Shown: positions 773 to 57,764, numbered from the stretch's first letter. The stretch is DNA of 64,000 nucleotides from Candidatus Binatia bacterium (GCA_963664395.2 OY761159.2:2464001-2528000); one strand, 5' to 3'. The notes: a model not told the origin generated them from the sequence alone. A program made the numbers and translations.

Positions 773-795
773 ACCCTTACCCCTCCCGCTGGGGA

Positions 796-1587: not shown

Positions 1588-1740
1588 AATCTATCTTGCT
1601 TGTAGTGAGAACAAAACGAGTATAGCCCATAAGAGGCGCATCTTTTTGGCCAAGTAGAATGCAGGTTAATAGCAACGAATGCCCTCGTTTCAACGGTTGG
1701 TTGAGCCGTTTGGAATCCCTGGACTAAACAATACGCGCGG

Positions 1741-2613: not shown

Positions 2614-2634
2614 CGTGAGGTAGGGCGCGTTTAC

Positions 2635-27009: not shown

Positions 27010-28464
27010 TCACAGAGTCGAGGACTCCCACAACGCCAGTCCTCGCTCTACCGCACTTTCGATCCAGTCCCGAAAACGCAGCTCTGTATCAGCGATGTCC
27101 TCTTTGTAATTGATCTGAAATACCTCGTCGCAAAGAGCCGTCTCTCCTTCTGACTCAGAGCCGCCATCATCCGTTGGCACCCGCTGAAACCAGGTGCCTG
27201 AGCAAACCAGGACGCCCCGGAATTCATGTCCGATGCAGTGAAACGTAATCAGAATGTTGCCTTGGCCGCCCCCTCTGGCAATCAGGCGCACCCAGGATCG
27301 ATAGTCTCTCGTATTCGCGTAGTATCCTAGCTGTTTGGCCGTTGAGACAATCTGGCGTTGAAAATAGTGGCTTCGTTCGCCCCGGTTTCCCTCATCATCA
27401 ACAGAAAAGGTGAAGTCGTGATGGTCGCTTAAGGCGTCCTCAAGTGACGAACAGACTTCGTTCATCCTTTCTTTCGCAAGTGTATGCAGATGCTCGGCGT
27501 TCGCCATCGCGGCTCGCCACTCTTGAACTAAGGCATCTCGTCGTTGAGCCAACCGCTGGCCGATTGCCTGGATGCGAGCATTGACGCGGATGTCTTTCTC
27601 TAAGCCACGAGCTATGCCAAGAGCGTTGACGAACTCCCGCTTTTGGAGCCCAGCAAAGAACGAGACGAGCGGCTTCAGATTGCCACGGTCGGCTTCCTCG
27701 AGTGCGCCGATATATTTGTCGCGTTCGCTGTCTCGAACGACCAGCGGTAGCCAGTCGGCCTTAACGAATATCAAGGTGGCAAGGGCTCGCGCGATGCGTC
27801 CGTTCCCATCCTGGAATGGATGGATTTGAGTAAACCGGTGATGAAGCCATGCGGCCTCGACTTCTGGCGCAACATCGTGATGGTTCCGGTGCAATTCGAT
27901 CAAGCTGTCCATTTCCGACGCAACCTGCTCTGGAGGACAATAAGGGTGAATAGTCCCGTCGGGGCGCGTGGGATTGTTCGGTTGTCTCTTGTAGTCGCCA
28001 CGAATGAGCGGTACTTGCACCTTACGGCCGGACGGGTCTCGTCCTTCGACAAATTCCTGGTGGCGGGTGAATACTTGATGCAGCTCTTTAACATAGCTTG
28101 TTGATAACTGACGATCTCCTTTGACAAATGCGAAAACGCTCTCAACCGCATTTTCTTGATCGTCGATCATCGCCACAATATGTCCGGGATCGTCCGCGAC
28201 GTGACGAGGAATAAGCGCTGCGTTTACGCCGCGTTCGATCATCAATTCGGTAATACCGTGGTCCAGCGTGTAGAGCCGTTCAATAAGACCCGTTTCTATT
28301 GCCCATTCACGTTTAAGGCGCTCCGTGAACTTGCTAATGTTGTCAGACTCGCTCAGCTTGGATCGTTGCTCAACCCAAACGCCCGAAAGGGCACGCAGTT
28401 CCTTATCGGCCAAACCCTTTGGCTCGGTCTCGTAGTCGAGAATCGGGTACCACTCCTGGGACAT
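27010..28464 (-). CDS. Fic family protein
   Basis: Canonical HPFQDGNGRIAR motif; N-terminal AIETGLIE inhibitory-like helix. Confidence 0.92.
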   Translation of the reverse strand: MSQEWYPILDYETEPKGLADKELRALSGVWVEQRSKLSESDNISKFTERLKREWAIETGLIERLYTLDHGITELMIERGVNAALIPRHVADDPGHIVAMIDDQENAVESVFAFVKGDRQLSTSYVKELHQVFTRHQEFVEGRDPSGRKVQVPLIRGDYKRQPNNPTRPDGTIHPYCPPEQVASEMDSLIELHRNHHDVAPEVEAAWLHHRFTQIHPFQDGNGRIARALATLIFVKADWLPLVVRDSERDKYIGALEEADRGNLKPLVSFFAGLQKREFVNALGIARGLEKDIRVNARIQAIGQRLAQRRDALVQEWRAAMANAEHLHTLAKERMNEVCSSLEDALSDHHDFTFSVDDEGNRGERSHYFQRQIVSTAKQLGYYANTRDYRSWVRLIARGGGQGNILITFHCIGHEFRGVLVCSGTWFQRVPTDDGGSESEGETALCDEVFQINYKEDIADTELRFRDWIESAVERGLALWESSTL

Positions 28465-30411: not shown

Positions 30412-30813
30412 CCGGTGTCCGAATTTGCCGGCGCCAGCTAACACGGTTCCGGGCGGAAGGCCTACAACGAGGAACGGCTTGCGAGCGGGAATCACGGCAT
30501 CAGGCAGATGCTTATGCTGTGGAAAACTCGACAGTCCAGGAAAGTGAGGCGTACTGTCATAACGAAAAATCAAACGGTTGTGTCCATCCTGACAGTGATA
30601 GCGATAATCGAGCGGAACGAGAGTATTTCCTTCGACTACGACGGCTTCATTAATTTCTAACAAATGCCCTTGCTCGAAGCGAAGACGCATCCGTAGATTG
30701 ACCCGCTCCGATGTCACAATCTCCTCAATATAGCGTTCAACGTAAGCATTGCCGCACTAGAGAATCGTCCTCTCAATCTTCTCCAGATAATCGGCGAGAG
30801 CTTCATGCAACAT
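30409..30813 (-). pseudogene. TumE/DUF6516-like toxin with a nonsense codon
   Basis: MLHEALADYLEKIERTIL*(TAG 30757-30759)CGNAYVERY...YRYHCQD...FRYDSTPHFPGLSSFPQHKH; start overlaps the antitoxin stop. Confidence 0.7.
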
Positions 30814-31036
30814 CGTGCAGGCTTTTCTCTAATTTCCGACGAAGTGCCAAATAATGGCGGTAATCATTCGCCCACTCCACAAACACAGCGTCATCCGACA
30901 GTTTGCCCCGGCTGTACCGATCAAAGAACTCCTCCGAGTCCATCTGCTGCTGGCTCTCATAAGTGCTCAGCCGTTTCGTCACTACTACCAATGCGTCAAG
31001 GGGTGAGGTGTATTCGATTGTTTGTTTCCGCATCAT
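30803..31036 (-). CDS. TumA-like antitoxin
   Basis: LSTYESQQQMDSEEFFDRYSRGKLSDDAVFVEWA pattern, upstream of the DUF6516-like toxin. Confidence 0.7.
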   Translation of the reverse strand: MMRKQTIEYTSPLDALVVVTKRLSTYESQQQMDSEEFFDRYSRGKLSDDAVFVEWANDYRHYLALRRKLEKSLHDVA

Positions 31037-31092
31037 TTCACCCGATATCCCCATCCCCTCTTGGGAGGGGTGCCGAAGGCGGGGTGGGTTCT

Positions 31093-32280
31093 CTACGGCC
31101 CAGCACACAGCCCGGCCCGCGTCAGCCGTACTAACGTCTCCGTAATCAGACGCACCGCTTCTTCAAGGTCTGCGTCGGTCGTGCCAAAGCCGAGGCTGAA
31201 GCGGATTGAGGATTCCGCCTCCTCACCACTCAACCCGATAGCCCTCAGAACATGCGACGGCTCAGGGATACCCGAGGTGCAGGCAGAACCAGTCGAGGCC
31301 GCGAGGTGCGGCTGTAAAGCGCCGAGGATGTCATACGCCGAGAAATCGGTGAACCGGATATTTGCATTGCCGGGATGACGGGCCTGCCCTTGAGGGCCAT
31401 TCAAGGCTATCGGCCACGACAGACGGTTGAGCATGTCAACAAACGTATCGCGACGCCGGCATAACTGCGCCCGCTTCTCTTCCGCATCAGCAGCGGCAAA
31501 GATATCTGCCGCTGCACCCATCCCGACACAGAGCGGAACCGGGACCGTGCCCGAACGCAGCCCGTTCTGCTGCCCGCCACCATAGATCAACGGTTCGATT
31601 TGATCCTGAAATTCGCGTGAAATATAGATGGCTCCAATGCCTTTCGGGCCGTACATCTTGTGCGCCGAAAGGCTCAGCATATCGGCGTGGCTCGCCATTG
31701 ATCCCATATTCATGGCAAGGGGTGCCTGCGCTGCATCGCAATGAAAAACGGCTCCGTAACTTCTCACCAACTCGGATATTTGACCAATGTCTTGAATCGT
31801 CCCGATTTCGTTATTAACCGCCATAATCGATACGGCGAGAACATCATCGTTCAACGCTTCTTCCAGAGCCGCCATTTCCACAAAGCCCTCGGCGTCAACC
31901 GGGATCAGTTCCACCGCGAAACCGAACTGCTCTTGTAAAACTCTGGCAGCAGCCAGCACGCATTTGTGTTCGATAGTGCTAACCAGAATGCGGCGGCGCT
32001 TACCCCCGACGGCCCGGCGACCCAAGCCGAGCAGAGCCAAGTTGTTTGACTCGGTTGCTCCTGAAGTGAATATGATTTCATCGGCGTCCGCGCCGATCAG
32101 CCGCGCCACGCACGTGGCAGCTTCTTCCACGGCTTTTGCAGATTCCCAACCAAGGCTGTGATCCGACGAATGCGGATTGCCGAATAACTCCGCATAATAT
32201 GGAGTCATGGCAGCCACAACGCGCGCATTGACCGGCGTTGTGGCCTGATGGTCAAAATAGAGGGTTTTACCGATTTTCAT
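31093..32280 (-). CDS. sspA: Cysteine desulfurase (SspA/DndA-like sulfur donor)
   Basis: YFDHQATTP, FTSGATESNN, HCDAAQA, SAHKMYGPKG (PLP Lys), STGSACTS (catalytic Cys); divergent from the sspBCD-like operon. Confidence 0.9.
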   Translation of the reverse strand: MKIGKTLYFDHQATTPVNARVVAAMTPYYAELFGNPHSSDHSLGWESAKAVEEAATCVARLIGADADEIIFTSGATESNNLALLGLGRRAVGGKRRRILVSTIEHKCVLAAARVLQEQFGFAVELIPVDAEGFVEMAALEEALNDDVLAVSIMAVNNEIGTIQDIGQISELVRSYGAVFHCDAAQAPLAMNMGSMASHADMLSLSAHKMYGPKGIGAIYISREFQDQIEPLIYGGGQQNGLRSGTVPVPLCVGMGAAADIFAAADAEEKRAQLCRRRDTFVDMLNRLSWPIALNGPQGQARHPGNANIRFTDFSAYDILGALQPHLAASTGSACTSGIPEPSHVLRAIGLSGEEAESSIRFSLGFGTTDADLEEAVRLITETLVRLTRAGLCAGP

Positions 32281-32373
32281 TGTTCCTGGGCGGATGCTCC
32301 CTTGAGACTACCATAGGGTATAGGATATGAGCTACACACGACCCGGAGGCTCCATCCGGCAACTAGAGGCTAC

Positions 32374-33345
32374 ATGGCACGCGGACCACTTTTTCAAGAC
32401 GGCTACAAGCCGCAATTTTCGGGACACGAAACCTTTCCGCTCCGCTATGGATGGCTGAAGAAAGTATTCGACCGCGTCGCTGAAACCGAGAACGAGCCCG
32501 ATAACAGAAACGCCTGTTGGGACGATGGGGCTATTGCACGCTTCGGCGTTGGCAAAAACATGGTGGCCTCCATGCGCCATTGGGCAAAAATGAGCGGAAT
32601 CATTGAGGAGCCAACCGGTACAAGCACCGTTTGCCCGACAGAACTTGGCCGTATGCTTTTCGGGCCGGACGGGCTTGACCCGTATATGGAGCACCCCGCC
32701 ACGCTCTGGTTGATCCATTGGCTGTTGGTGGCACAGCCCGAAAAAACAACCTGGTTCTGGACCTTCAGCCACTCCCCCGCTATGACCTTTGACCGGGACG
32801 GCCTTGTCAGGAAACTCGAACGCCTCGCCCAAGACCGCTTCCAGGACAAAGCTTGGCCGCGTATAGCAGGTCATACAATCAAAAACGATGTTGCCTGCTT
32901 TATTCGGACCTATGTCGCCCGGCAGACGACGGGAAAGATGAGACACGATGACGTGCTTGAATCGCCCCTGACCGAGTTGGGGCTCATCAAGTCTATCGGC
33001 AAACAAGACGGATTTAGTTTTGTGCGTGGTCCGAAGGCCACGTTGGGCGATGGTGTATTTGTCTATGCGCTCATCGACTTTTGGACGCGCTATTTCTCCA
33101 ACGCAGCCACGTTGTCGTTTGAGGCCGTTGCCTACGCGCCCGGTGGGCCGGGCCGGGTCTTTCTGTTTGACGAGAACGATGTCGCCGACCGTCTTGCCGC
33201 GCTTGACGAGGTGACGCGCGGCAAGCTCAGATGGTCCGAGACAGCCGGGCTGAAGCAAGTGGTGCGCACTATCGATATTGGTGAAGAAAACCCGCTGTCC
33301 TATGTGTCGAGCGACTACCGCGAGCGTGGTAGGAAGGCGGCTTGA
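32374..33345 (+). CDS. sspB: DUF4007 family protein (SspB-like)
   Basis: FSGHETFPLRYGWLKK, FGVGKNMVASMRHW, DPYME...TLWLIHW, ESPLTELGLI, PGRVF. Confidence 0.88.
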   Translation: MARGPLFQDGYKPQFSGHETFPLRYGWLKKVFDRVAETENEPDNRNACWDDGAIARFGVGKNMVASMRHWAKMSGIIEEPTGTSTVCPTELGRMLFGPDGLDPYMEHPATLWLIHWLLVAQPEKTTWFWTFSHSPAMTFDRDGLVRKLERLAQDRFQDKAWPRIAGHTIKNDVACFIRTYVARQTTGKMRHDDVLESPLTELGLIKSIGKQDGFSFVRGPKATLGDGVFVYALIDFWTRYFSNAATLSFEAVAYAPGGPGRVFLFDENDVADRLAALDEVTRGKLRWSETAGLKQVVRTIDIGEENPLSYVSSDYRERGRKAA

Positions 33346-36300
33346 TGGCACTACACGAACGGGTCCGCATAGAGCGTCGCTTTCTGAGATCGATTCGCAT
33401 TGACGACGATCTAGGTGAATCCGCCGCGCTCGAAGGATTTGTCTGCCCCCAATCGTCTGCTGATGTCCTCATGACAATGGCGCGTCATGTCTCTGAAACG
33501 GGACACGGCGCATTCACGTGGACCGGTCCGTACGGAAGCGGGAAGTCAAGTCTTGTTGTTGCACTAAGCGCCTTGCTGAACGGCAATACGGGCCTGCAAA
33601 GTGAGGCGACTCAGGTCTTCGGGCAGAGTCTGACCAATACGATTTGGAACGCCTTACCGACCGGTCACAAAGGATGGCGCGTCATCCCGGTTGTTGGCAG
33701 ACGTGACCATCCTGTCAGCGTCATTGGGGAAGCCGTTCAGAGCGCAGGGCTCGTACCGCGCCGGCCTCGCGGCGGCTGGACCGAGAGCAAGCTGATCGCC
33801 ACACTGACAGCCGCGTCTGCCGAAAACCCCGAGACCCACGGCGGACTGATTCTGTTCATTGATGAGATGGGCAAATTTCTTGAAGCCGCCGCGCGGGACA
33901 GCTCCGATATCTATATTCTTCAGCAACTTGCAGAGGCAGCCTCACGAAGCAACGGGCGTTTCCTTATTGTCGGAGTGTTGCATCAGGCATTTGAGGAATA
34001 CGCCCACCGGCTTTCGCGCGAGATGCGCGACGAGTGGGCCAAGATTCAGGGGCGTTTCATTGACCTTGTTGTAGACGCTGCCGGCGAAGAGCAGATCGAC
34101 CTGATTTCCCGTGCGATTGAGAGTGACCATCATCCGAAAGAACCGAGCGAGTCGGCGTCCACGGTTGCCGCGATTGCGCGCCGCGAGCGCCCGAGTGAGG
34201 CTGAACGGTTTGCCTCCATATTGGCAGCGTGCTGGCCGTTGCATCCGGTTGTGGCCTGCCTGCTCGGTCCGATATCGCGCCGGCGTTTTGGTCAGAATCA
34301 ACGCAGTATCTTCGGCTTTCTGAATTCATCCGAGCCTCACGGTTTTCAGGACTTTCTCAAACACGCTGGGGATAGCGAGCGGTACGGCCCGGATCGTCTC
34401 TGGGATTATCTGCGCGCCAATCTGGAGCCATCCATTCTGGCTTCGCCCGACGGACACCGCTGGGCTTCAGCGGTGGAGGCGCTTGAACGTTGCGAATCCA
34501 CGTGTGGAGATGACCTCCATAGCAAGCTGCTCAAGACGATCAGTGTCATCGATCTATTTAAGGAGCGCTCAGGGCTGGTTGCGAGCTTCGAGCTGCTACG
34601 GAGTTGCTTTCCCGACACTTCAATCGAAGCACTTCAACAAGCCTTGTCCCAACTCGATACCTGGTCGTTCACAATTTTCAGAAAGTTTCTTGGCGCATAC
34701 GCTATTTTTGCCGGAAGCGATTTCGATATTGACCGCGCCGTTCGGACAGCGCTTGACGATATCGACACAATCGATTTTCCGGTTCTGAAATCCCTCGCTG
34801 GATTGCAGCCGATTCTCGCCAAGCGCCACTATCACGAGACGGGCACGCTACGCTGGTTCGATGTGGATATCTTCCCGCTCAGCAATCTTGTTGAATTTAC
34901 TTCTCGCTCCGAACCTAAAAACGGTGCAATCGGTCAATTCTTACTCGCAATAGCGACCGAAGGAGAAGACGAGGAACAGGCAAAAGATTTATGCCGTAAG
35001 GCAGCATGCCACGGCAACGCCTGGGATATCATTGTCGGTACTTCGAGCAGCTCTCAGGCCGTGGTGCCGCTGGCGCGGGAGCTGCTTGCGCTGGAAAGGG
35101 TCAGCAACGACCATCCCGAGCTGGCGGGTGATCCTGTGGCAAGGCGGGAAGTTGATGCCCGGCTTGCGGATATGCAGGCCCTTCTTGAAACGGAATTGCA
35201 CAAGGCGTTCGATAATGCGTTATGGTTCCGCGAGCATTATCAGCCTACACCCTTACGGCAGGCTGAATTGAACACTCTGGCTTCCGAACTGGCCGATAGA
35301 CGCTTCAGCCAATGTCCTCGACTGTATAACGAACTACTCAATCGACACAAACCGTCAACGAGTGCTATTACGGCACAGAATCACCTGTTACGGCGCATGG
35401 TCCAGAATGAAGGCGAGCCGCGGCTTGGCATTGAGGAGTTCCCCGCCGAGGGTGGGTTGTTCGTGTCCGTTCTTGAATCAAGTGGACTCTACGCACCGGA
35501 AGATAAGGGTTGGCGTTTCGTTTCACCAATGGAGACGCTTGATGATCCGTGCTTCCTTGCTCCTATGTGGGAAGCGGCGCTCGCGCATGTGAAAGCGCAT
35601 GCTAGGCGTACCGTTGCCGTCTCTGAACTGTTCGACCTGTGGCGCAAACCCCCGTTCGGTCTCAAGGATGGGCTCATGCCGATTCTTGCCGTCGCCTTCG
35701 TGTTGTCTTACCGTAACAAACTGGCGGTCTATCGGGGCGGTATTTTTAGAGCGCGATTTGACGATGTGGATGTCGAGTATCTGGCAAAGAATGCGACCAC
35801 CATACAGTTGCGCTGGATGGACCTGTCGGAGGGTTCCCGTAATTTGCTTTCCGGCATGGCGCAGGTCGTCCGCGATCTTGACGGCGCAAACACCCTTATT
35901 CATCTGGAGCCTATTGATGTTGGTCGCGGCCTGGTGGCGATCTACGATCAACTGCCGCAATGGACCACGCGAACGATGCACCTATCTGCGAACGCTGTGC
36001 GTGTCCGGGATATTTTCAAACGTGCGTACGATCCCAATGCGTTTCTGTTTGAAGACATCCCAGGAACGCTCGGTGAAGACGTAGCGCTGGCCACTAACCG
36101 GGATGTGCACCGGATCATAGCAAGCGTCCGAGAGGGGCTAGAAGAATTAGTCCGTGCCTATCCTGAAATGCTCAACCGCCTGCGCGATAGCATGCTTTCG
36201 GAATTGCAGGTCCCGAATGCCTCGCCGCAATCGCTGGCGGAATTACGAGACCGTGCAGAAAACATCAGGCAGCTTGCCGGCGACTTCAGGCTCGAAGCCT

Positions 36301-36725
36301 TTGTTGGCAGGCTCTCGCAGTTCGACGGTAGCGACGAGAGCTTTGAAGGGATAGCAAGTCTCGCGGCGAACAAGCCGCCCCGCGATTGGGTTGATCCCGA
36401 TCTCGATCAAGCCGCCATTGAGCTGGCTGATATGGCGCAGAAATTCCTCCGCGCCGAAACATTCGCGCGTGTGAAGGGCCGACCGAACAAACGGCACGCT
36501 ATGGCGGTCGTTGTCGGGACGGACAGAAATCCACGCCCGTTGCTAGAGGAATTTACTATCGCTGACGCTGACCGTGCTAGTATTAACGATCTTATCAACC
36601 GCCTTTCAGCAATCCTTGAAGAGGCAGACGATAGCATCATCTTGGCGGCGCTGGCGGAACTCAGCATACGCTACATGCAGAAGTCGCCTCCGCAACTGAA
36701 GGGGAAAGAGAGGGCCGCATCTTGA
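33342..36725 (+). CDS. sspC: Large P-loop ATPase (SspC-like)
   Basis: Walker A GPYGSGKS, Walker B LILFIDEMGK, EWAKIQGRF, FGQNQRSIF, PPFGLKDG; coupled to flanking genes. Confidence 0.85.
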   Translation: MMALHERVRIERRFLRSIRIDDDLGESAALEGFVCPQSSADVLMTMARHVSETGHGAFTWTGPYGSGKSSLVVALSALLNGNTGLQSEATQVFGQSLTNTIWNALPTGHKGWRVIPVVGRRDHPVSVIGEAVQSAGLVPRRPRGGWTESKLIATLTAASAENPETHGGLILFIDEMGKFLEAAARDSSDIYILQQLAEAASRSNGRFLIVGVLHQAFEEYAHRLSREMRDEWAKIQGRFIDLVVDAAGEEQIDLISRAIESDHHPKEPSESASTVAAIARRERPSEAERFASILAACWPLHPVVACLLGPISRRRFGQNQRSIFGFLNSSEPHGFQDFLKHAGDSERYGPDRLWDYLRANLEPSILASPDGHRWASAVEALERCESTCGDDLHSKLLKTISVIDLFKERSGLVASFELLRSCFPDTSIEALQQALSQLDTWSFTIFRKFLGAYAIFAGSDFDIDRAVRTALDDIDTIDFPVLKSLAGLQPILAKRHYHETGTLRWFDVDIFPLSNLVEFTSRSEPKNGAIGQFLLAIATEGEDEEQAKDLCRKAACHGNAWDIIVGTSSSSQAVVPLARELLALERVSNDHPELAGDPVARREVDARLADMQALLETELHKAFDNALWFREHYQPTPLRQAELNTLASELADRRFSQCPRLYNELLNRHKPSTSAITAQNHLLRRMVQNEGEPRLGIEEFPAEGGLFVSVLESSGLYAPEDKGWRFVSPMETLDDPCFLAPMWEAALAHVKAHARRTVAVSELFDLWRKPPFGLKDGLMPILAVAFVLSYRNKLAVYRGGIFRARFDDVDVEYLAKNATTIQLRWMDLSEGSRNLLSGMAQVVRDLDGANTLIHLEPIDVGRGLVAIYDQLPQWTTRTMHLSANAVRVRDIFKRAYDPNAFLFEDIPGTLGEDVALATNRDVHRIIASVREGLEELVRAYPEMLNRLRDSMLSELQVPNASPQSLAELRDRAENIRQLAGDFRLEAFVGRLSQFDGSDESFEGIASLAANKPPRDWVDPDLDQAAIELADMAQKFLRAETFARVKGRPNKRHAMAVVVGTDRNPRPLLEEFTIADADRASINDLINRLSAILEEADDSIILAALAELSIRYMQKSPPQLKGKERAAS

Positions 36726-37561
36726 CCACTGATATGGAACGGCACGTACTCGGTCTTTCCGGCGGGCGTGACAGTGCGGCACTGGCTGTCTACATGCGGC
36801 AGCAGCATCCCGCGCTCGACATTCAGTATTTCTTTACGGACACGGGCAAGGAGCTGCCCGAGGTATACGAATTTCTTGGGCGGCTGGAAGGTTTTCTCGG
36901 ACAGCCCATATTACGGCTGAATCCTGACCGGGATTTTGATTTCTGGCTGAAGCAGTACAACGACTTTCTGCCCTCTCCGCAAACCCGTTGGTGTACCCGG
37001 CAACTCAAGCTGCGTCCGTTTGAGCAGTGGTTACGTCCAATGCTGCAAGCCGGCGAGACGATCTACAGCTACGTAGCGATCCGTAGCGATGAAGAATACC
37101 GGGAGGGGTATTCGTCCAAGAATGACAAGCTCATCGTTAAACTACCCTTCAAGGAAGCGGGTATCGACAAGCCCGGCGTTCTGGAAATTCTTGATGGTGC
37201 CGGGCTGGGCTTGCCGAAGTACTACTCATGGCGTACCCGTAGCGGCTGCACGTTTTGCTTTTTTCAGCAGAAGATCGAATGGGTGCGACTCAAGGAGCAG
37301 CACCCCGACGCTTTTGAGGAAGCCAAAGCCTACGAAAAGACTGCCGTTAAAAACGGCTCGCCTTTCACCTGGAGCCAAGGCGAGTCATTGGAAGAGTTGG
37401 AACGACCGGAACGCATAGCCCAGATCATGCAAGATCACGAACGACGCCTTGCGCGTAAACGCTCCAAGGTCCAGCCAAATCCATTAAGGCCGGACGGCGA
37501 GCCGTTGGATATAGATGATCTGTACGGCAAGGCAAAGGTGTGTTTGGCGTGTCATAAGTAA
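36722..37561 (+). CDS. sspD: PAPS-reductase-family protein (SspD-like)
   Basis: PP-loop LSGGRDS, DTGKELPE, RWCTRQLK, RSGCTFCF, C-terminal CLACHK. Confidence 0.88.
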   Translation: MTTDMERHVLGLSGGRDSAALAVYMRQQHPALDIQYFFTDTGKELPEVYEFLGRLEGFLGQPILRLNPDRDFDFWLKQYNDFLPSPQTRWCTRQLKLRPFEQWLRPMLQAGETIYSYVAIRSDEEYREGYSSKNDKLIVKLPFKEAGIDKPGVLEILDGAGLGLPKYYSWRTRSGCTFCFFQQKIEWVRLKEQHPDAFEEAKAYEKTAVKNGSPFTWSQGESLEELERPERIAQIMQDHERRLARKRSKVQPNPLRPDGEPLDIDDLYGKAKVCLACHK

Positions 37562-37629
37562 TGAGTGGTCAGATAGTGCTAGACAACACCCATAGAATCA
37601 ACAGGGACAGCACCTTGTATGGTCCCCCA

Positions 37630-37820
37630 CTCCCCCTCGGACGCAGTCTGCCACTCCGGTACCCCTGCCGAATCCTCCTATGTCCTGCGCGCTGTCGGCC
37701 TCGGCCATGAAAATGCCTACGCGACCCCACGCATCGCCGCCGGCCGCACCACCGCTCACGCTGAGGCGGAACATGCTACGCGCCGTATCGAAGAAACCGT
37801 AGGCGTATTGCGAAAGTTAT
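37630..37820 (+). pseudogene. Decayed C-terminal remnant of a second cysteine desulfurase
   Basis: SDAVCHSGTPAESSYVLRAVGLGHENAYATPRIAAGRTT...EETVGVLR resembles IscS-type SGSAC..G..EPSYVLRA.G......SIRFS.GR.T. Confidence 0.6.
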
Positions 37821-37850
37821 GGGCGCAAACAAGTTTTGGATCTGTGAGCG

Positions 37851-38141
37851 ATGTTTGTTGATAAAGAAGCCGAAGTCCTAAAAGTCGATACGGAGGCGAT
37901 AAAAATACGACTCTTGGGGGAACCCTACGTCGTTTACAATTCGTTTGGATATCAGGCGGTGGTCGATATTTGGCACATCAAGAAAAGACGGCAGTTTCGG
38001 TTGTATCTGTCTGCGAAGTCGCTGTCGTCACAGCTAGAGAAGATAAGGAATGCAAATGCGCTAGACTATTTTACAGGTATAGAATTTTGGATTAGTAAGG
38101 CATCTAATGAGCGGTCTTCAGCCTACGCACTGTCGGAGTAA
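37851..38141 (+). CDS. Hypothetical protein (96 aa), first gene of the AT-rich module
   Basis: Intact ORF, co-oriented with and overlapping the GIY-YIG ORF. Confidence 0.6.
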   Translation: MFVDKEAEVLKVDTEAIKIRLLGEPYVVYNSFGYQAVVDIWHIKKRRQFRLYLSAKSLSSQLEKIRNANALDYFTGIEFWISKASNERSSAYALSE

Positions 38142-38595
38142 AAACGTGCTGTTTCCAAATACATTCTCCGCGGAAATTCGAAAGTACGGAAAAAGGTTCA
38201 CCCTGCGAAATATCTTATCGACTGCACAAAACGCGCTAGGCGTCTACATATTTCATCACAACCATAATTTCATTTATGTAGGGCAATCCATAAGAGTTAA
38301 AGACCGTCTTGTACGTCACTACAATGAATCTCACAATGAGGAATTAGCCACCTGGATCAAAGCGCTTGATGGTAATATAAAATTTACTATATTCTATAAT
38401 ACCCAAATTGACGACCTGGAGAGATCACTTATTTTTTATCTACAGCCCATAACGAACAGAGAACGATATCCAGGCTACATACCGAAACGCACCAAATGGA
38501 GGAAGACCCATGCCCAGTGTACATCCAGCAATGAGGGGAAAGTTTGGCTCCACCGAGTACTTCATGTTGACAATGAAGGCTGGGGATGTCGCTAA
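38107..38595 (+). CDS. GIY-YIG nuclease family protein
   Basis: GVYIF...IYVGQS...RLVRHY...LERSLIFYLQPITN signature; start may be GTG at 38146. Confidence 0.78.
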   Translation: MSGLQPTHCRSKNVLFPNTFSAEIRKYGKRFTLRNILSTAQNALGVYIFHHNHNFIYVGQSIRVKDRLVRHYNESHNEELATWIKALDGNIKFTIFYNTQIDDLERSLIFYLQPITNRERYPGYIPKRTKWRKTHAQCTSSNEGKVWLHRVLHVDNEGWGCR

Positions 38596-39781
38596 TCAAC
38601 TTGTAATTCCAAAGGATATGCCTGATTGGGGAGAACTCGAACTCGAAGAGCGTTTTCAGAGAGAGATCAACTACAATCGAGTGAGAAAACAGATTGCACC
38701 TTATCTTGCTAACGATCCGGATCGATTCTTCGGAGCGCTGATTATTGCAGTAATCAACCCGGAATCGATGGAGTTCGAGGCCATGGATAACGTATCTAGT
38801 AAGATACCCAAGCTCTATCAGACTGCGTCCAAATCGTTTGGTTTCCTGACGCTATCTGGCGGCGAAATGTTGGTTCCACTAGATGGGCAACATCGGCTCG
38901 CTGCGATTAAATTCGCGCTTTCTGGAAAAGATGAAAAACAAAAACCGATCCAAGAAATCAATCCAAATACTGAACTTGCCAACGACGACGTACTCCTAAT
39001 AATGGTCAGGCATGATCCTGAGAAAGACAGGAGGATATTTAATAAGGTTAATAGATATGCAAAGGCCACAACCAAAGCCGAAAATCTGATCACTTCTGAC
39101 GATGATATTATCGCAATTATTTCAAGAGAGATAATTGCGAATGAACTAATCGGAAGCCGTCTTGTCAACTACCGGAGCAATACATTACCGGATTCCGTTC
39201 ACTATTTTACAACTTTATCAACGATATACGATGCAACGAAACATGTACTTGAAGAGCATTTCGGAAAGATCAACGATCAGGTATTACCAGACAATGCAAA
39301 CAAAAAAATGTACGAAAACGTAGCGAGAGAATATTGGGATCGCCCGTTAAGAGGTGTGACTATTTATAACGCTGCTCTATCAGATAACACCGAAGGTGGA
39401 GATGAAAAGCGAATAGAGATAAGAAAAAGTTTGCTCCTAGGGAAGCCAATATCTCAATTATCGTTGATGCTGGCGATCATAAGACTGAAAAATGTAGAAC
39501 AACCTGATGGATCAAGATTATCTTGGGAGATCATCCTAGACCGCATCAATAAAGTGAATTGGGAAATTGATAATCCAATGTGGCAAAGGATTCTGATGAA
39601 CGGGGCTAGAATCGTTAACGGGAAGCAAGCTGCTGCCTTTGCTTCCCGATTTATTGCCTACTATATCGGAGAGCCTTTGGAGGAGACAGAATTGGATAAT
39701 TTGAAAGATGTTTTTGCCAGCCATTTCTCTGAAGCCGAACGTATGAGTATCGGCCTTCCAGACAGACTGTTCAATCCCTGA
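38510..39781 (+). CDS. DGQHR-domain (DndB/ParB-like) protein
   Basis: FQREINYNRV, RFFGALIIA, LDGQHRLAAI, RIFNKVNRYAK. Confidence 0.88.
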   Translation: MPSVHPAMRGKFGSTEYFMLTMKAGDVANQLVIPKDMPDWGELELEERFQREINYNRVRKQIAPYLANDPDRFFGALIIAVINPESMEFEAMDNVSSKIPKLYQTASKSFGFLTLSGGEMLVPLDGQHRLAAIKFALSGKDEKQKPIQEINPNTELANDDVLLIMVRHDPEKDRRIFNKVNRYAKATTKAENLITSDDDIIAIISREIIANELIGSRLVNYRSNTLPDSVHYFTTLSTIYDATKHVLEEHFGKINDQVLPDNANKKMYENVAREYWDRPLRGVTIYNAALSDNTEGGDEKRIEIRKSLLLGKPISQLSLMLAIIRLKNVEQPDGSRLSWEIILDRINKVNWEIDNPMWQRILMNGARIVNGKQAAAFASRFIAYYIGEPLEETELDNLKDVFASHFSEAERMSIGLPDRLFNP

Positions 39782-40085
39782 TTGCTCTGTGAAATTTGAT
39801 CTTCCAGTATTTGAAATCGTCGGATTTCTTGGGTTCCGACCTTAAACGATAGAAGGGAATGTGCGGTCTGTCACGACGATTGGGCTTCGCGACAATAGCG
39901 AAATATCCACTGAATGTTTCCCTCAACGCGGGAGTGTATCGTACACGCCCGTCCGTGATAGCGCCGGACTCCACGAGGTCAATCACTGCCAATAGCAGGC
40001 AAGGTTTATGAGGACTCTCTCCGCCATGAGTTGCGTCGACGTTGAGATTGGCGAACATCCATAGATATTCTTGTAAATCAGGCAT
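39771..40085 (-). pseudogene. Truncated sulfur-binding domain (SBD) of a PT-dependent HNH restriction endonuclease
   Basis: SPHKPCLLLAVIDL...PHIPFYRLRSE resembles ScoMcrA-type SBDs; no HNH domain follows. Confidence 0.65.
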
Positions 40086-40250
40086 TGCTCACTACCGATT
40101 CCGCCTGAGAATGGAGGAGAGCCTAGCAGAAGATGCTTTGACATGCCACGTATTCTCGTACTGATGGAAACAAACGGCACTTCACCAGATGCTGAACAAT
40201 CACACATCTAGGGCGTTTCACGATAGACTCTCGCCGTGCAGGGGGCTCCC

Positions 40251-40326
40251 GTCATGCCGGACGTGATCCGGCATCCAGCGGGCGGCTGGGGCTGGGGGTC
40301 TGGATTCCTGCTTCCGCAGGAATGAC
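40251..40326. repeat. Pair of CGTC-type REP palindromes
   Basis: gtcatgccggacgtgatccggcatccag and ctggattcctgcttccgcaggaatgac; reverse-complement relatives of 796-867. Confidence 0.75.
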
Positions 40327-40354
40327 GGGCAGCTACACAGAATCGTAATGTGCT

Positions 40355-40648
40355 CTAGGCTTGGCGGAGTTCAAGCTCCAGGCGCATCCCGACAGCGGCT
40401 GCGGCGCGTTTCAACGTATGCAGCGTCACGCCTTCGTTCTCCGGGTCGGGCAACCGGTCGAGCTGAGAGCGACTGGTTGCCATGCGCTCGGCCATCCGTG
40501 CCTTGGAGAGGTTTTGCGTCTTCATCGCCGCCTCCAGCTTGTAGGCAAGCACGGACTTGATCGCCTGGTTCTTCGCGTCTTCATAGGTGCCGTCTTCCCG
40601 GAGTAAGCTTTCAAGCGTTGAGCCGAGATACGGGTTTTTCTTAGCCAT
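40355..40648 (-). CDS. XRE/HTH antitoxin-like regulator
   Basis: NPYLGSTLESLL...AIKSVLA...SKARMAERMATSRSQLDRL.DPEN..VTLHTL.RAA.AVG pattern. Confidence 0.8.
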   Translation of the reverse strand: MAKKNPYLGSTLESLLREDGTYEDAKNQAIKSVLAYKLEAAMKTQNLSKARMAERMATSRSQLDRLPDPENEGVTLHTLKRAAAAVGMRLELELRQA

Positions 40649-40768
40649 GTCGATCGTGCTCCTTATCAAGCTGTGGTTGGCAGAACGCCTCGAACAAGCG
40701 GCCCCACAAGGCCAGCTAGTCAGACGGCTATTTTTGCGCACAGGATAAGGCTGCATGGACATCCGCCG

Positions 40769-41104
40769 CTATAACGGCCCCTGTTGGCCTTCAACCTCAG
40801 GCTTGCCGGGGAAGCGTTCGACCTTGATAGCGTTTTCCCTCTGTCGAGCCTGGGCGATATCGTAGCTGTTCTGCATTCGCATGAGCGTGTCCATGCCAAC
40901 GCCGAAAGCCTTCTCGATGCGCAGAGCCATTTCTGGGGAAAGCGAGGAGCGCCCGTTCAGCAGTGCCGAGAGCGCAGGCCGCGTGACGCCCAGCGCCCTT
41001 GCGGCTTCCGTGACGGAAAGTTTCAGCGGCTCGATAATTTCGGTTTTGACAAACCCACCCGGATGAGGCGGATTCTTCAGCCTATAGCTTTTGGATGTCT
41101 CCAT
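40769..41104 (-). CDS. higA: HigA family antitoxin
   Basis: PPHPGGFVK...LSVTEAARALGVTRPALSALLNG...SPEMALRIEKAFG...MQNSYD. Confidence 0.88.
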   Translation of the reverse strand: METSKSYRLKNPPHPGGFVKTEIIEPLKLSVTEAARALGVTRPALSALLNGRSSLSPEMALRIEKAFGVGMDTLMRMQNSYDIAQARQRENAIKVERFPGKPEVEGQQGPL

Positions 41105-41138
41105 GGTTTTCACCCTTTCAGTCAAAGTATGGGATAGC

Positions 41139-42617
41139 CTAACGCACAGCCTGGCGCATCAGCCGGTGCCCGGCCAAACGGAGGCCGCGAGCGGCTAAGG
41201 CGATCTGCCAGCCCTCTCGGGTGCCGATTAACTCGGGCTTTTCGTACAGTCCCTTTTTCTCTTCTTGGCGGGTCAGGCGGGAGAATTTTTCATACAGGGG
41301 ATGATCTGTGGAGATAAATGTTTCTTTCCGGTGCAAAATCGGCGGATTGGGTGAATCCTGGTAGTTGCGGTACCGAATCTTGAACGTTTGCAAGGGAACG
41401 ATAAGGGAGCTGGCGAGAGCGGGATGCGGATCGCGCTCGAAGTCCGGGTAGGAGAGATAAGAAACGCGGGGTTTGTCTCTGTGCAGCTTGATAATGTTCG
41501 CGTTTTCGACAACCCCGATATATGCCCGCGCACAGCCTTCAAAGGCGCGCAAGATGGGCGGGAGGTGCGGCAGGGCTGATTCGTGAACGTATAAGGCTTC
41601 GCGCGTCAGTTTCCCAACAGGCGCGGTACGACACGCCTGATCGACCGCAGTACGATCACCGGCGGAGAAAAGGAGATCATCGGCGAGAGAGCAGGCGCGG
41701 CTATAGGACGAGAAAAACGCACGGACATCATGCTGTAAATCGCGGGGTAATTGCGTAAAGCGCGGGCGGCCCTCAAAACGGGAGAGCGCAACATACAGGA
41801 GAATATCCTGCTGACGCTCGGCTCGAATTTTACTCCACTCTTCATCGCCGGTGACGCGCCGGATGACGCCATACGCCCGTTTGAGACTCCCCAACGCCTG
41901 GCAAATGAGTTCCGTCTCCGGCAGCTCAGCGTCTTCCGGTAAGCGCCCGCGGGCCGTCAGAAATCCGATCAGCGGTTCCAAGATGTCTTTGTGTTGTTCA
42001 AACAGGACTTCGCTGAGACGTTGGCGCGGAACCGTAAACTGGCGTCGATACCGAGAGGCGGCAAAGGACTGGCGTTGCTGCGAGTCCCGAAACACATAGA
42101 AAATCCCCGGTCCGGCCGGCACGCTCGGAGTACCGAGAACAGTGTCGATCCACTCGCGTAATTCTTGCTGTTCAAAGAATTTCTGGAATGTCCCCAAGCG
42201 CGTAATACCGCCGTCGGTGTGGGGGGTCAGCGTAGCGAACGCTGTTTCTAGTGTGAGGCGGGCAGAGACAATCAGCACTTTCCGGGTCAACTCCCACGCC
42301 TGCCGGAGGGCTTCGGTGCGCTCGCGGGGGTTTTCGATCACGTTGACTACGTAGCCAAGATTCACAATATCGGCTGGAGTCTGCTCGTTGTCCGGGAAAT
42401 AGGCCGGGTCCCAGCCCTGGCAGGGAATCTGCCGATGTCTGAGATGCAGAATATCCGTTCCCCGCCCGCAGCCATAATCAAAGACGGTTGTCTCTGGGGT
42501 GATAAGGCCAGCCTCAAGGGCGAGCCGGACCGGACGGGAGAGGTCGGTCCGGGTGATTGCGGTGCGATGTCGCTCAATCGTGGGCGCTGCCATCGGCTCG
42601 TCGGCTGCTCGTGCCAT
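41139..42617 (-). CDS. DNA phosphorothioation-associated putative methyltransferase
   Basis: RHRTAITR..LSRP, SAM-binding FDYGCGRG.D, GWDP, VNLGYVVNVIE, TFQKFF.Q, YPDFERDPHPAL, NPPILHRKE; start uncertain (42593, 42617 or 42713). Confidence 0.85.
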   Translation of the reverse strand: MARAADEPMAAPTIERHRTAITRTDLSRPVRLALEAGLITPETTVFDYGCGRGTDILHLRHRQIPCQGWDPAYFPDNEQTPADIVNLGYVVNVIENPRERTEALRQAWELTRKVLIVSARLTLETAFATLTPHTDGGITRLGTFQKFFEQQELREWIDTVLGTPSVPAGPGIFYVFRDSQQRQSFAASRYRRQFTVPRQRLSEVLFEQHKDILEPLIGFLTARGRLPEDAELPETELICQALGSLKRAYGVIRRVTGDEEWSKIRAERQQDILLYVALSRFEGRPRFTQLPRDLQHDVRAFFSSYSRACSLADDLLFSAGDRTAVDQACRTAPVGKLTREALYVHESALPHLPPILRAFEGCARAYIGVVENANIIKLHRDKPRVSYLSYPDFERDPHPALASSLIVPLQTFKIRYRNYQDSPNPPILHRKETFISTDHPLYEKFSRLTRQEEKKGLYEKPELIGTREGWQIALAARGLRLAGHRLMRQAVR

Positions 42618-42771
42618 GAGTTGCCGAGCAGGGTTCTCCGGTTGGCCACTATAGTCCTGGTTCGGCGTGTGCTCAATATCGACCCGTGTCTCGTTGCCGA
42701 ACCCCTTGCACACTTTCGTCCGGCTTGACTACAATGGCCGACTGAATTGAGGGTAAAAGGAGGAACTCGGA

Positions 42772-43275
42772 ATGGCTAAAGTTGGACAAGTATTTGATGC
42801 GCTGGACGCGGCCCTAGTGCGTACGGATAAGGAAGAGTGGATTCAGAGCGGCGACGGGAATCAGTTCAAGGTGTTGCGGATCAGTAAAGAGACGGGTGCC
42901 TGGAGCGCGCTTATCAAAGCCGACAAGGGCCAGGTGAATCCGCCCCATACGCATTTGGGCGCGGCCGATTTCTACGTCATCTCCGGGGGCTTTGACTATC
43001 GGGGTGGGTCTGCCCGGGCCGGGGATTGGGTCTACGAACCGGCCGGTGCGGTGCACGAAGCAACCTCACATCCTGTTGATACCGTCTATCTGGCCAACGT
43101 CTATGGCCCGGTCGGTTTCCACGATGAGAAGGGCAATATCGCCCATGTGCTTGACTGGCGGGCGATTCAACTGATGGTTGATGAGGACAAAAAGAAGCGG
43201 GCGAAGACGAAGCGGAGTACGAAAAAGCGAGCGACAGCCACCAAAACCACTCGGAGCCGGAGAAAAGCCGCCTAA
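42772..43275 (+). CDS. Cupin-domain protein (dihydroxyacetophenone dioxygenase-like) with a Lys/Arg-rich tail
   Basis: PPHTHLG, GDWVYEPAGAVHEA; tail KKKRAKTKRSTKKRATATKTTRSRRKAA. Confidence 0.75.
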   Translation: MAKVGQVFDALDAALVRTDKEEWIQSGDGNQFKVLRISKETGAWSALIKADKGQVNPPHTHLGAADFYVISGGFDYRGGSARAGDWVYEPAGAVHEATSHPVDTVYLANVYGPVGFHDEKGNIAHVLDWRAIQLMVDEDKKKRAKTKRSTKKRATATKTTRSRRKAA

Positions 43276-56369: not shown

Positions 56370-57668
56370 TCAATCAGCGGCCATATTGTTCGGGGTGCTC
56401 GGCATCGTTTCCCGTAGCTGCTCTAACTCGCGCTGTTCGCTGGATGACAGTGTCTGTCTCAGGCGCTTACGATTGAGCTGCGCAAGCTGCGTGAGCTTGG
56501 CCTTCGATTGTTCGGACCGAGTGACTTCTTCGCCGAACAGTTCCGTGCCGTAGGCGTCGAGTATATTGCCGTCGAGCAGACGGTTCAGATCAGGTCCAAT
56601 GACGCGCCGGGGTTGCTCCTCGGAGCCGGGTGCCGGCAGGAGCCAAACACTGCCACGGCGCGCGGCGCGACAGATGATCGGGCTGTGTGTGGTCACCAGG
56701 AATTGCATATTAGGAAAGCGATTGACGAACCAGTCACCGATGAGTTGCTGCCAGCCGGGATGCAGGTGAGCATCGATTTCGTCGATCGCTACTACACCGG
56801 GAAGTGTAATCGCTCCGGCCTTCATGTCGATTCCGCGCAGGGCCGTTTCAGTACCAAAAGCAGAGAATAGTAAACGCATCACCTCGAACGTCAAACTGAG
56901 AATCGAGCGGTAGCCGTCGCTCATCTCCTGAACGGCAACTTGGGAGCCAAAGCCGTCGACAATCTGTACCTGCTCCGATGTTACGCCGGAGATGCGGGCG
57001 CCGTGCGGCAACAGCTTGGCGCCATTGATGAAGTCTATCACTGCCCTCTGTATCTTCTTCGATTCAGCATCGCTTTCGAGCCTTTTGATCTGGAGGTCTC
57101 TCAACCAGCGGAGGCTCTCGCCTAGCGCTACATTCTCTCCGAACGCCGAGAGGTGAGGAGCCAGTCGAGGATGGGTAACGTAGAGGCGGTCCATCTCCGG
57201 GTCAGCGCCAGAGAAGCGGCGAAACGGCCCGAACGAACCGGAGAACCAGCCAACACCCTTCCCCCAAACGGTTCTCTCGGCGTACCGATAGGGGAAGAAC
57301 TCAATCGAAGCGTGACCTCCATTCCGTTTGCCACCGCCTGAGCTGGCATTGATTTGTGCCTTGGCATGAATTATGCCCTCGCCTCGCCTCCCCCGGCCCG
57401 CCCACCTGTCCTCGTCATGGGCACGCAGCCAGACATTAATCGACCCGAATTTCTTACCGTCCGTAAGCCAGCGAGACCAGTCCTCACGAGTGGCGTGTGC
57501 GTTCGACTGGCCCATGAGCGCCAGCGCGAGGGCGCGTACCACCGTCGATTTGCCGGCGCCGTTGTCACCCAGAATGACATGCCAGCCGGGCAATTCCCTT
57601 GGCCGTAGACGGAGATCGAATTCTCGTATCGAGCGAACGTTCCTAAGAATCAGCCGTTGAACGTGCAT
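56370..57668 (-). CDS. ABC/AAA_21 ATPase (Septu PtuA-like)
   Basis: Walker A GDNGAGKS, signature MSDGYRS, Walker B IDEIDAHLHP.WQ, H-loop TTHSP. Confidence 0.85.
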   Translation of the reverse strand: MHVQRLILRNVRSIREFDLRLRPRELPGWHVILGDNGAGKSTVVRALALALMGQSNAHATREDWSRWLTDGKKFGSINVWLRAHDEDRWAGRGRRGEGIIHAKAQINASSGGGKRNGGHASIEFFPYRYAERTVWGKGVGWFSGSFGPFRRFSGADPEMDRLYVTHPRLAPHLSAFGENVALGESLRWLRDLQIKRLESDAESKKIQRAVIDFINGAKLLPHGARISGVTSEQVQIVDGFGSQVAVQEMSDGYRSILSLTFEVMRLLFSAFGTETALRGIDMKAGAITLPGVVAIDEIDAHLHPGWQQLIGDWFVNRFPNMQFLVTTHSPIICRAARRGSVWLLPAPGSEEQPRRVIGPDLNRLLDGNILDAYGTELFGEEVTRSEQSKAKLTQLAQLNRKRLRQTLSSSEQRELEQLRETMPSTPNNMAAD

Positions 57669-57764
57669 GGGACCTTCTCGCAGATCGTATCCGAGGCATC
57701 CTGGCACGCAGGCGGGAGAGGGTCAACCTTTTCAACTTGATGCTATGCGACCAAGCGCAACGAT

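Follow-up and report, generated by a model that had tools for sequence, protein, structure and literature searches.

The window analysed here, a stretch of 64,000 nucleotides from Candidatus Binatia bacterium (GCA_963664395.2 OY761159.2:2464001-2528000; positions are counted from its first letter), carries a locus of the Ssp type of DNA phosphorothioation (PT) in which a small stand-alone GIY-YIG nuclease and a DGQHR protein related to DndB are encoded by two overlapping genes behind sspD. This GIY-YIG + DGQHR pair is a conserved unit that is functionally tied to PT writers and moves as a cassette, and among genomes of one genus the place behind sspD is where restriction modules are swapped. 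As to its role, we tentatively read the pair as a two-protein, SspE/DndI-like nuclease that reads PT, a reading which is quite possible if somewhat short of probable.

The GIY-YIG and DGQHR genes and their cassette

The DGQHR protein matches PF14072 with 120.9 bits (cut-off 29.1) and TIGR03187 with 100.7 bits (cut-off 58.85, E-value 1.2e-28), and reaches 78.2 bits on TIGR03233, the DndB equivalog, which is below the cut-off of 328 bits. Its gene is the last one after sspBCD and not the first of a dndBCDE operon, and no dndC, dndD or dndE was found with PADLOC and NCBIfam among the open reading frames (ORFs) of the locus. On a quick tree canonical DndB (L058_3652 and L076_18894) forms a very long outgroup branch, and in these two loci, L058 and L076, a true DndB stands beside a member of the DGQHR family. 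Judged by sequence, the protein is a DndB paralog and not DndB proper. An earlier reading of the window made from its letters alone (the sequence-only reading) had allowed for a protein that is only a DndB-type transcriptional repressor; DndB proper is ruled out by the score, the outgroup branch and the coexistence, while the DndB/DGQHR domain itself is present. Among 6601 candidates, 2404 relatives were found at E <= 1e-3, the best 120 of which are 348-474 amino acids (aa) long and 52-98% identical, and in alignment A1 (22 sequences) both the DGQHR motif (residues 125-129) and FNKVNRYAK (177-185) are invariant.

The AlphaFold (AF2) model of the DGQHR protein has a predicted local distance difference test score (pLDDT) of 83.4 and a predicted template modelling score (pTM) of 0.58. 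The five best VIA structure matches are all of the ParB/Srx fold and extend over residues ~10-187, namely PadC (Z 6.5, root-mean-square deviation (rmsd) 3.0, 98 residues aligned), KorB (Z 5.7), sulfiredoxin (Z 5.2), ParB-N (Z 5.1) and SspE (Z 5.0, rmsd 4.2, 130 aligned). A search of the sequences of solved structures with profile A1 gave no match at E <= 1. For the C-terminal domain (196-423) no convincing fold match was obtained, and Atlas gave DndB-like or unnamed clusters only. Furthermore, the DGQHR protein has no match to PF03235 (DUF262) at E 0.01, PF07510 (DUF1524) was not found in it, and no longer fused DGQHR form occurs among the proteins of 742-2115 aa, which is weak evidence.

The domain match and the conserved motif residues place the partner protein in the GIY-YIG superfamily. 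Its Pfam match is marginal in the window and homologs score better (PF20815 35.3 in L019, PF01541 35.7 in L103). Y57, G59, R67, H71, E105, I109, P114 and N117 are invariant in alignment A2 (26 sequences) and G45 and Y47 nearly so; these residues, I109 and P114 apart, we take to be the catalytic set of GIY-YIG enzymes. The partner proteins are ~110-150 aa long and have no second domain, and the ORF of the window has a possible alternative start at GTG 38146. At the consensus junction of the two genes, CATGGCTAG, the stop of the nuclease gene overlaps the start of the DGQHR gene. The junction of the window reads CATGCCCAG; here the GIY-YIG gene has lost its own stop and the ORF extends 86 nt into the DGQHR gene, so that 27 residues are added. 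This change is private to the window, since its DGQHR protein starts MPS and that of a 98% identical relative, P0001, starts MAS.

Together with three further pieces the two genes make up a 2.6-kb cassette, in the order desulfurase stump, 96-aa ORF, GIY-YIG, DGQHR and HNH stump. The left stump is 41% identical to residues 322-383 of the SspA of the locus (E 1e-10). In the right one only the first ~80 codons of a gene for a PT-binding HNH endonuclease are retained, the NF045808 match covering positions 7-77 of the 284 of the profile and BLASTP aligning it at E 1e-8 with its intact counterpart in L006 (288 bits, cut-off 180 bits) over residues 15-91 of the latter. Neither of the two stumps had been mentioned by the sequence-only reading, nor had the lost GIY-YIG stop or a TIGR04096 methyltransferase gene further downstream. 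The 96-aa ORF has no match in Pfam, PADLOC or NCBIfam; homologs with 37-66% identity stand at the same position in L003, L005, L007 and L009 only, and the nearest Atlas clusters, which are unnamed phage hypotheticals, are a lead only.

The G+C content is 42.3% in the cassette compared to 56.0% in sspBCD and 56.5% in the window, and lies at 0.39-0.46 over 38000-39500 against 0.53-0.60 around; the AT-richer trio of overlapping ORFs (96-aa ORF, GIY-YIG, DGQHR) described by the sequence-only reading is real. Low G+C is a family-wide trait of GIY-YIG + DGQHR. Indeed, in 12 of 12 Ssp loci compared the pair is 4-24 points lower than sspB/C/D, and at least 10 points lower in 10 of these 12. Since each of the 12 loci shows this offset, a recent insertion of foreign DNA was rejected as the only reason for the low G+C. 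In most of the dndC loci compared, the DndI-like gene has the same low G+C and dndC does not.

Distribution of the pair and the slot after sspD

In a pattern scan of one genome per species 199 stretches were obtained, of which 103 were confirmed and the best 80 kept; the 1277 ORFs of these 80 loci were clustered, representatives were named via Pfam, PADLOC and NCBIfam, and GIY-YIG genes were counted with a profile. A GIY-YIG gene is present in 41 of the 80 DGQHR loci and stands directly upstream in 36 of the 80 (same strand, end within 120 nt of the DGQHR start). A PT gene of the 3'-phosphoadenosine-5'-phosphosulfate (PAPS) reductase type, SspD- or DndC-like, was found in the flanks of 37 of the 41 GIY-YIG loci, so that the module does not occur independently of PT genes; an independent occurrence would, according to the sequence-only reading, have refuted its proposal. 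Sulfurtransferase genes in these loci come as sspBCD in 19 of the 41, with the order (A) B C D (96-aa ORF) GIY-YIG DGQHR, as the short dndC type in 16 and as an SspD-like gene only in two; 18 GIY-YIG loci have the PAPS-reductase-type gene alone, without SspB/C or DndD/E. The exceptions without a PT gene are L020, L043 and L056, on contigs of at most 5.6 kb, and L006, in which the flanks are complete, writer genes are missing and the fused frame looks decayed. GIY-YIG is absent from 39 loci, and the flanks of 26 of these contain no PT modification gene. In L003 the two genes are fused in frame into a single complete ORF, GIY-YIG::DGQHR, which is 555 aa long, and they also share a frame in L006; L024 holds the intact order sspD-sspA-GIY-YIG-DGQHR. 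Decayed versions are also seen, with a truncated DGQHR gene in L037 and L045 and a split one in L016.

On a quick IQ-TREE of 77 DGQHR proteins, with support from the Shimodaira-Hasegawa-like approximate likelihood ratio test (SH-aLRT), all GIY-linked DGQHR proteins but one fall in a single clade (43 of the 77 rows, SH-aLRT 98), and the exception, L056, falls in a clade otherwise without GIY-YIG. The 43-row clade splits into an Ssp-linked half of 20 rows, the window included, and a half of 23 rows linked to DndC or SspD only. Both halves mix phyla, with Pseudomonadota, Actinomycetota, Chloroflexota, Acidobacteriota, Nitrospirota, Latescibacterota, Spirochaetota and others.

A compact order recurs in 16 loci of several phyla (L021, L028-L034, L036, L038-L042, L044 and L061; for example L034:6712-11263): an often present cysteine desulfurase, a short DndC (~400 aa, TIGR03183 355 bits), a DndI/SspE-like GmrSD protein (PF03235 + PF07510), GIY-YIG and DGQHR. 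Neither DndD/E nor SspB/C was found in any of these 16, and the order could, from its gene content, be a compact PT system of its own. An intact PT-DNA-binding HNH gene lies near the pair in L006, L011, L013, L015, L018, L022, L024, L032 and L039; this recurrent gene is often convergent with the DGQHR gene and scores 222-288 bits on NF045808 in the two cases tested. In L026:8838-11272 the place of GIY-YIG is taken by an HNH gene (384 aa, PF13395) with a 4-nt overlap into the start of the DGQHR gene, and the Bacillota loci L053, L058, L064 and L080 also have an HNH gene close to the one for the DGQHR protein.

The position of the cassette was compared among related genomes. The SspD model matched 28 of 401 genomes of the same class, the genome of the window counted, and 5 of 27 other genomes of the genus, and all 29 other SspD places were set against the window. 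No close copy of the cassette was found at these 29 places. A distant pair directly follows sspD in L100, L103, L110 and L111, with a DndB-type protein 26-35% identical to that of the window and a small partner that matches the GIY-YIG profile at 1e-13 to 1e-5, two of the four also matching Pfam GIY-YIG. In L111 (4435-18789) sspBCD, the small GIY-YIG gene, a DndB-like gene (419 aa), SspF, SspG and SspH follow each other on one strand. When the slot was analysed with PADLOC and Pfam (49 ORFs of 14 loci), it was found to hold a Pbe-like module (sigma-r4 protein, PbeA, PbeC and a protein of 147-161 aa) in same-genus and same-family genomes (L095:8801-16098, L090:8819-13845 and L086:8801-16152), SspFGH in L096, and a helicase-HATPase-PLD trio in L088, L098, L101 and L106. 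With tblastn, PbeA/PbeC-like genes were seen at 11 of the 29 SspD places, and six Ssp loci of five same-genus genomes have Pbe-like genes or SspFGH, the pair being in none.

The exchange is seen most directly in the congener L095, which matches the window over 31061-36517 and 36731-37559 at 93% and over 40167-41116 at 94.5%; between these shared flanks the window holds the 2.6-kb cassette and L095 a Pbe-like module of 7.6 kb. The sequence-only reading had the cassette replace sspE. It does occupy the slot, but what the closest congener holds there is a PbeABCD-like module and not sspE. The stumps are consistent with import of the cassette from a donor with the gene order of L024 (sspD, sspA, GIY-YIG, DGQHR) and L011 (DGQHR and a convergent PT-binding HNH gene). 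Moreover, SspB, SspC and SspD of the window are 70-86% identical to those of L005, whereas for its DGQHR protein the nearest counterparts are in L003 and L010 (70-71%), two loci in which SspC identity is only 23-27%. From these mismatched identities, the pair appears to move independently of the writer.

In metagenome assemblies, a contig of run X1, which may be the sample of origin, covers 37097-40145 with zero mismatches. In X3 and X10, from other studies, the contigs of the cassette extend from 37545 to 39802 and have a depth of 3.7-8, and the flanks sum to ~100-240; contig depths being crude, this is only a hint that most related strains may be without the cassette. Among the joints listed there is no contig joint that skips the cassette. 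A contig from an RNA library lies on 38516-38720 with one mismatch and, DNA carry-over being possible, is weak evidence of expression.

A possible PT-reading nuclease and the rival explanations

No member of the SspE, SspFGH, PglZ or BrxL families was found among the 11 ORFs of the locus (Pfam, PADLOC and NCBIfam) or among the 43 other ORFs of the window (Pfam only), as the sequence-only reading had stated, with 54 ORFs scanned in all. As regards BREX type 4, Pfam gave no PglZ or Lon-like match among these 54 ORFs, and SspD scores far above BrxP with PADLOC (1.3e-136 vs 4e-10). The search was extended to the genome of the window (L001; assembly 95.9% complete, 5.4% contamination), in which there is no SspE or DndI, no second DndB-type gene, no PF07510 (DUF1524) domain and no intact PT-binding HNH gene, NF045808 giving sub-threshold HNH matches only. 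Hence the canonical sspE elsewhere in the genome that could have spoken against a new effector was not found in this 95.9% complete assembly. The SspF model PDLC02795 has no match in this genome, but also none in any control genome; the PADLOC SspF/G/H models do detect SspFGH in L096 and L111. With PADLOC, the SspE, SspFGH and DndFGH models have no match among the 67 neighbour ORFs of 16 pair-bearing loci. Contig 1 of the genome does hold, 1.7 Mb from the window, one other DUF262 protein of 334 aa, whose neighbour has a sub-threshold RiboL-PSP HEPN match (E 1.3e-4, 22.4 vs 28.4 bits) and not an HNH one. These two may form a separate ParB-like + HEPN defence pair, unrelated to Ssp.

According to the reading that we favour, SspABCD would write single-strand PT marks and the two translationally coupled genes behind sspD would encode one two-protein nuclease. 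Its DGQHR subunit, through a ParB/Srx-type fold that would bind nucleoside triphosphate (NTP), would bind DNA and read its PT state, and would steer the small GIY-YIG protein, itself without a DNA-binding domain, to DNA without the proper mark, which it would nick or cut; alternatively, PT on the host DNA would switch the nuclease on, as in SspE. The SspE/DndI/GmrSD architecture, a ParB-like NTPase joined to a nuclease, would be split over two genes with GIY-YIG replacing HNH, and the pair would occupy the variable post-sspD slot that other restriction modules fill elsewhere. Complex formation, PT sensing, nuclease action and defence by the pair are all conditional steps of this proposal. For the first of them, co-folding of the DGQHR and GIY-YIG proteins, which the sequence-only reading had proposed, gave a median score of 0.53 with two alignments, the best of three controls reaching 0.00; between runs at least 81% of the contacts are shared, and the partner pLDDT is no lower than 68. 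Of 157 solved complexes 116 reached the mark set for this score, as did 2 of 215 mismatches, and scores of 0.60 or less were seen in only 18 of the 157 solved complexes plus both mismatches that passed, so that the result lends a complex weak support. The split, SspE-analogous effector of the sequence-only reading is borne out as to the conserved pair and the PT tie, and stays conjectural as to the effector role itself.

Several observations weigh against the proposed nuclease. The DndB profile is covered nearly end to end (2-335 of 338), a homology that points to a regulator. The fold matches are weak, with all Z under 8, and Foldseek against the PDB gave nothing at E <= 0.001 (best ParB, 6sdk_B, 7.5e-2); the low level of the co-fold score counts in the same direction. 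The window copy carries its private defect in the lost GIY-YIG stop and the 27 added residues. A nickase and an NTPase could also serve the writer, since dndC-type and sspD-only loci are without SspB/C and DndD/E. Finally, the pair co-occurs with a DndI-like gene in 16 loci, with PbeA/PbeC-like genes in L012 and L017, with SspFGH in L111 and with the PT-binding HNH gene in nine loci. Found as it is alongside other restriction modules, the pair is not just a stand-in for the usual effector; it could be an effector in addition to these, as DndI is to DndFGH, or else a regulator of the DndB kind. That SspFGH, Pbe-like and DndI-like genes accompany it would nevertheless not refute an effector, as DndI is described as sitting between dndBCDE and dndFGH and acting independently (PMC11662687). 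If the pair is an effector, it may be a self-contained PT-reading nuclease and a further Ssp restriction arm beside SspE and SspFGH, and the pair with a short DndC and a DndI-like gene, often with DndA and without DndD/E or SspB/C, may be an undescribed compact PT restriction-modification system; this wider claim we hold a little more tentatively than the nuclease itself.

The strongest rival, a serious one although we consider it less likely, places the pair in the modification arm and not in the restriction arm: the DGQHR protein would act like DndB, as an NTP-modulated DNA-binding regulator limiting PT density, and the GIY-YIG protein would nick on the writer side. Both the DGQHR domain and the Pfam model of DndB, matched over nearly its full length, agree with it, as do the reports that DndB is a negative regulator of PT (PMC4507180) and that ParB-like DndB-type proteins bind ATP and GTP (PMC12704722), and in L012, L017 and L111 the pair lies between the writer and the restriction modules, as dndB does. 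A helper of the writer would also best explain the 18 writer-poor GIY-YIG loci because only a PAPS-reductase-type writer gene is present there, and nicking and NTPase activity would need another supplier; yet tdpC alone is stated to make PT (PMC12914056), so that a lone DndC may need no helper. Canonical DndB, moreover, is a far outgroup that coexists with the DGQHR family in L058 and L076, the G+C of the pair tracks that of the DndI-like gene and not of dndC, and the Ssp systems described in PMC8092258 function without a DndB-like gene. A role as partner of the writer is, in particular, hard to square with a cassette that has shifted between SspBCD sets only 23-51% identical.

It is also conceivable, if improbable, that the cassette in this genome is a recently imported and decaying passenger, in which case the pair may work elsewhere. 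Gene stumps on both sides of the cassette, a GIY-YIG stop lost in the window copy only, the decayed versions in L037, L045 and L016 and in L006, which has no ssp genes, and the cassette depth of 3.7-8 against flanks of ~100-240 in two other metagenome runs, a rough guide, would all agree with decay. The DGQHR ORF is nonetheless intact with every A1-invariant residue kept, the core of the GIY-YIG protein is undamaged, relatives with 98% and 92% identity likewise keep their full length, and the RNA-library contig, although weak since DNA may be in the library, covers part of the DGQHR gene. We regard as very improbable a selfish homing-type element that inserts beside PT genes and spreads by cutting loci without it. 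Free-standing GIY-YIG homing endonucleases exist, the G+C of the pair is persistently foreign, its presence is patchy among strains and phyla, and there is a weak NCBIfam match to a group I intron endonuclease (2.1e-5, 24.7 bits vs 56-bit cut-off); but the upstream neighbour varies (sspD, sspA, the DndI-like gene or dndC), such an element would not be expected to have a 420-aa partner conserved at 40-70% identity in which the NTPase motifs are invariant, and the DGQHR tree divides by PT writer type, which fits a functional tie to PT.

Surroundings of the cassette and known systems

All ORFs of the sequence-only reading were found again at the same positions in our ORF list, and PADLOC and Pfam bear out its sspA divergent from a DUF4007-ATPase-PAPS reductase operon (Table 1). 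The sspB-C-D ORFs overlap and the operon spans 32374-37561 (+). With the desulfurase, SspB, SspC and SspD clustered at the locus, an SspABCD module is present, and by family membership it is the predicted writer of single-strand PT marks.

Table 1. Features of the locus in window coordinates
Feature	Position	Strand	Evidence
sspA, cysteine desulfurase, divergent from sspB-sspC-sspD operon	31093..32280	-	PADLOC SspA 3.5e-129; PF00266 3.6e-81
sspB (DUF4007)	32374..33345	+	PF13182 1.2e-83; PADLOC SspB 3e-106
sspC, BrxC-like ATPase	33342..36725	+	PADLOC SspC 1356 bits over 4-1059
sspD, PAPS-reductase-type sulfurtransferase	36722..37561	+	PADLOC SspD 1.3e-136; PF01507
C-terminal stump of second cysteine desulfurase, 80-aa ORF, left edge of cassette	37619..37861	+	IscS profile 323-381, 2e-8
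96-aa ORF	37851..38141	+	no family match
Stand-alone GIY-YIG nuclease	38107..38595	+	PF01541 23.9 bits vs 22.6; PF20815 23.5 vs 22.4
DGQHR protein, 423 aa, DndB paralog; N-terminal ParB/Srx-like domain and helical C-terminal domain	38510..39781	+	PF14072 7.9e-35
N-terminal stump of PT-DNA-binding HNH restriction endonuclease, 104-aa ORF, right edge of cassette	39771..40085	-	NF045808 1.1e-3
Dispersed palindromic repeat, just inside conserved right flank of cassette	40225..40345	.	~120 bp
Helix-turn-helix (XRE/HTH_37-like) protein, conserved right flank	40355..40762	-	PF13744 1.8e-5; 94% identical in congener L095
Putative PT-associated methyltransferase	41139..42713	-	TIGR04096 (dnd-related) 2.2e-189, 630 bits vs 150-bit cut-off

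The last ~70 codons of sspC look hypervariable between close relatives, because the DNA alignments break at 36517-36731: in five of the six alignments listed, all five to same-genus or same-family Ssp loci, the break is at 36517 and the alignment resumes at ~36701-36736. The palindromic repeat has 43 matches across the genome, and the bin that holds it (40048-40481) shows a very high summed contig depth of 519-4275 in three metagenome runs; for both reasons it resembles a repetitive extragenic palindromic (REP) or miniature inverted-repeat transposable (MITE) element. Homologs of the TIGR04096 methyltransferase lie near the DGQHR gene in L008, L025, L039 and L063, and according to a Pfam scan the outer flanks beyond the methyltransferase are housekeeping genes. 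A Fic-domain protein at 27010-28464 (-), 2.6 kb before sspA, and an AAA_21/AbiEii-type ATPase at 56370-57707 (-), further downstream, are possible defence or toxin genes. A promoter and terminator scan of 30500-43000 gave counts no higher than those of shuffled sequence (10 vs 8.2; 14 vs 13.3).

The interest of the pair lies in the restriction side of the Ssp systems. In PMC8092258, 2211 of 2678 sspBCD clusters are given as having neither sspE nor sspFGH nearby, and its authors asked which restriction partners are missing; the pair, conserved with PT writers in many phyla, is a concrete candidate, and in L111 its distant form sits between the writer and the validated restriction module SspFGH. 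It also bears on whether DndB-type proteins are regulators or effectors, since the paralog described here comes with a nuclease partner of its own; the pair may either control the sulfur mark or be an anti-phage weapon not described so far. The literature, without supplementary tables and the 2020 SspE paper, either of which may list the pair, gave no account of GIY-YIG genes paired with a DndB paralog at Ssp loci.

Closest in the nature of its parts is a survey centred on DndD-DndE (PMC10853773; Rakesh, Aravind, Krishnan, NAR 2024), which reports URI/GIY-YIG nucleases at the borders of DndD-DndE neighbourhoods, proposes them as backup or suicide effectors and also considers DndB as an effector or regulator. 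Its stand-alone GIY-YIG nucleases are, like the present one, linked to PT modification genes, but the survey, supplementary data aside, gives neither a fixed GIY-YIG + DndB-paralog pair nor a link to sspBCD. The PbeABCD-like (CxC ABC ATPase) modules share the post-sspD slot in the congeners L095, L090 and L086, but their proteins (HKD-helicase PbeA, DndD-like PbeC and others) are unrelated to the pair and coexist with it in L012 and L017; in the literature looked at, Pbe is paired with Dnd and not with Ssp.

DndB is the closest family in sequence, with PF14072 matched over the full profile, the DGQHR motif and an occurrence in PT loci, and is described as a non-essential negative regulator of PT (PMC4507180). 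The DGQHR protein of the window differs from it in being ~60 residues longer, in standing last in the operon, in being paired with a nuclease and in belonging to a family that coexists with true DndB. DndI, a DUF262 + DUF1524 protein of the order IscS-DndBCDE-DndI (PMC11662687), is an NTPase and nickase that works adjacent to the writer operon alongside a bigger restriction module, the position which the pair has in L012, L017 and L111; with DndI-like genes as its neighbours in 16 loci, the pair is neither an ortholog of DndI nor a simple substitute for it. SspE, finally, is like the pair in joining a ParB/Srx-like NTPase with a D-G-Q-x-R motif to a nuclease next to sspBCD, is a single self-contained effector, and its structure is among the five best fold matches. 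It is, however, encoded by one gene with a DUF1524 HNH nuclease, whereas the pair consists of two genes with a GIY-YIG nuclease, and its DGQQR motif lies in a DUF262 domain (PF03235), while the DGQHR motif of the window protein lies in a DndB-type domain (PF14072) followed by a helical C-terminal domain that has no convincing fold match.

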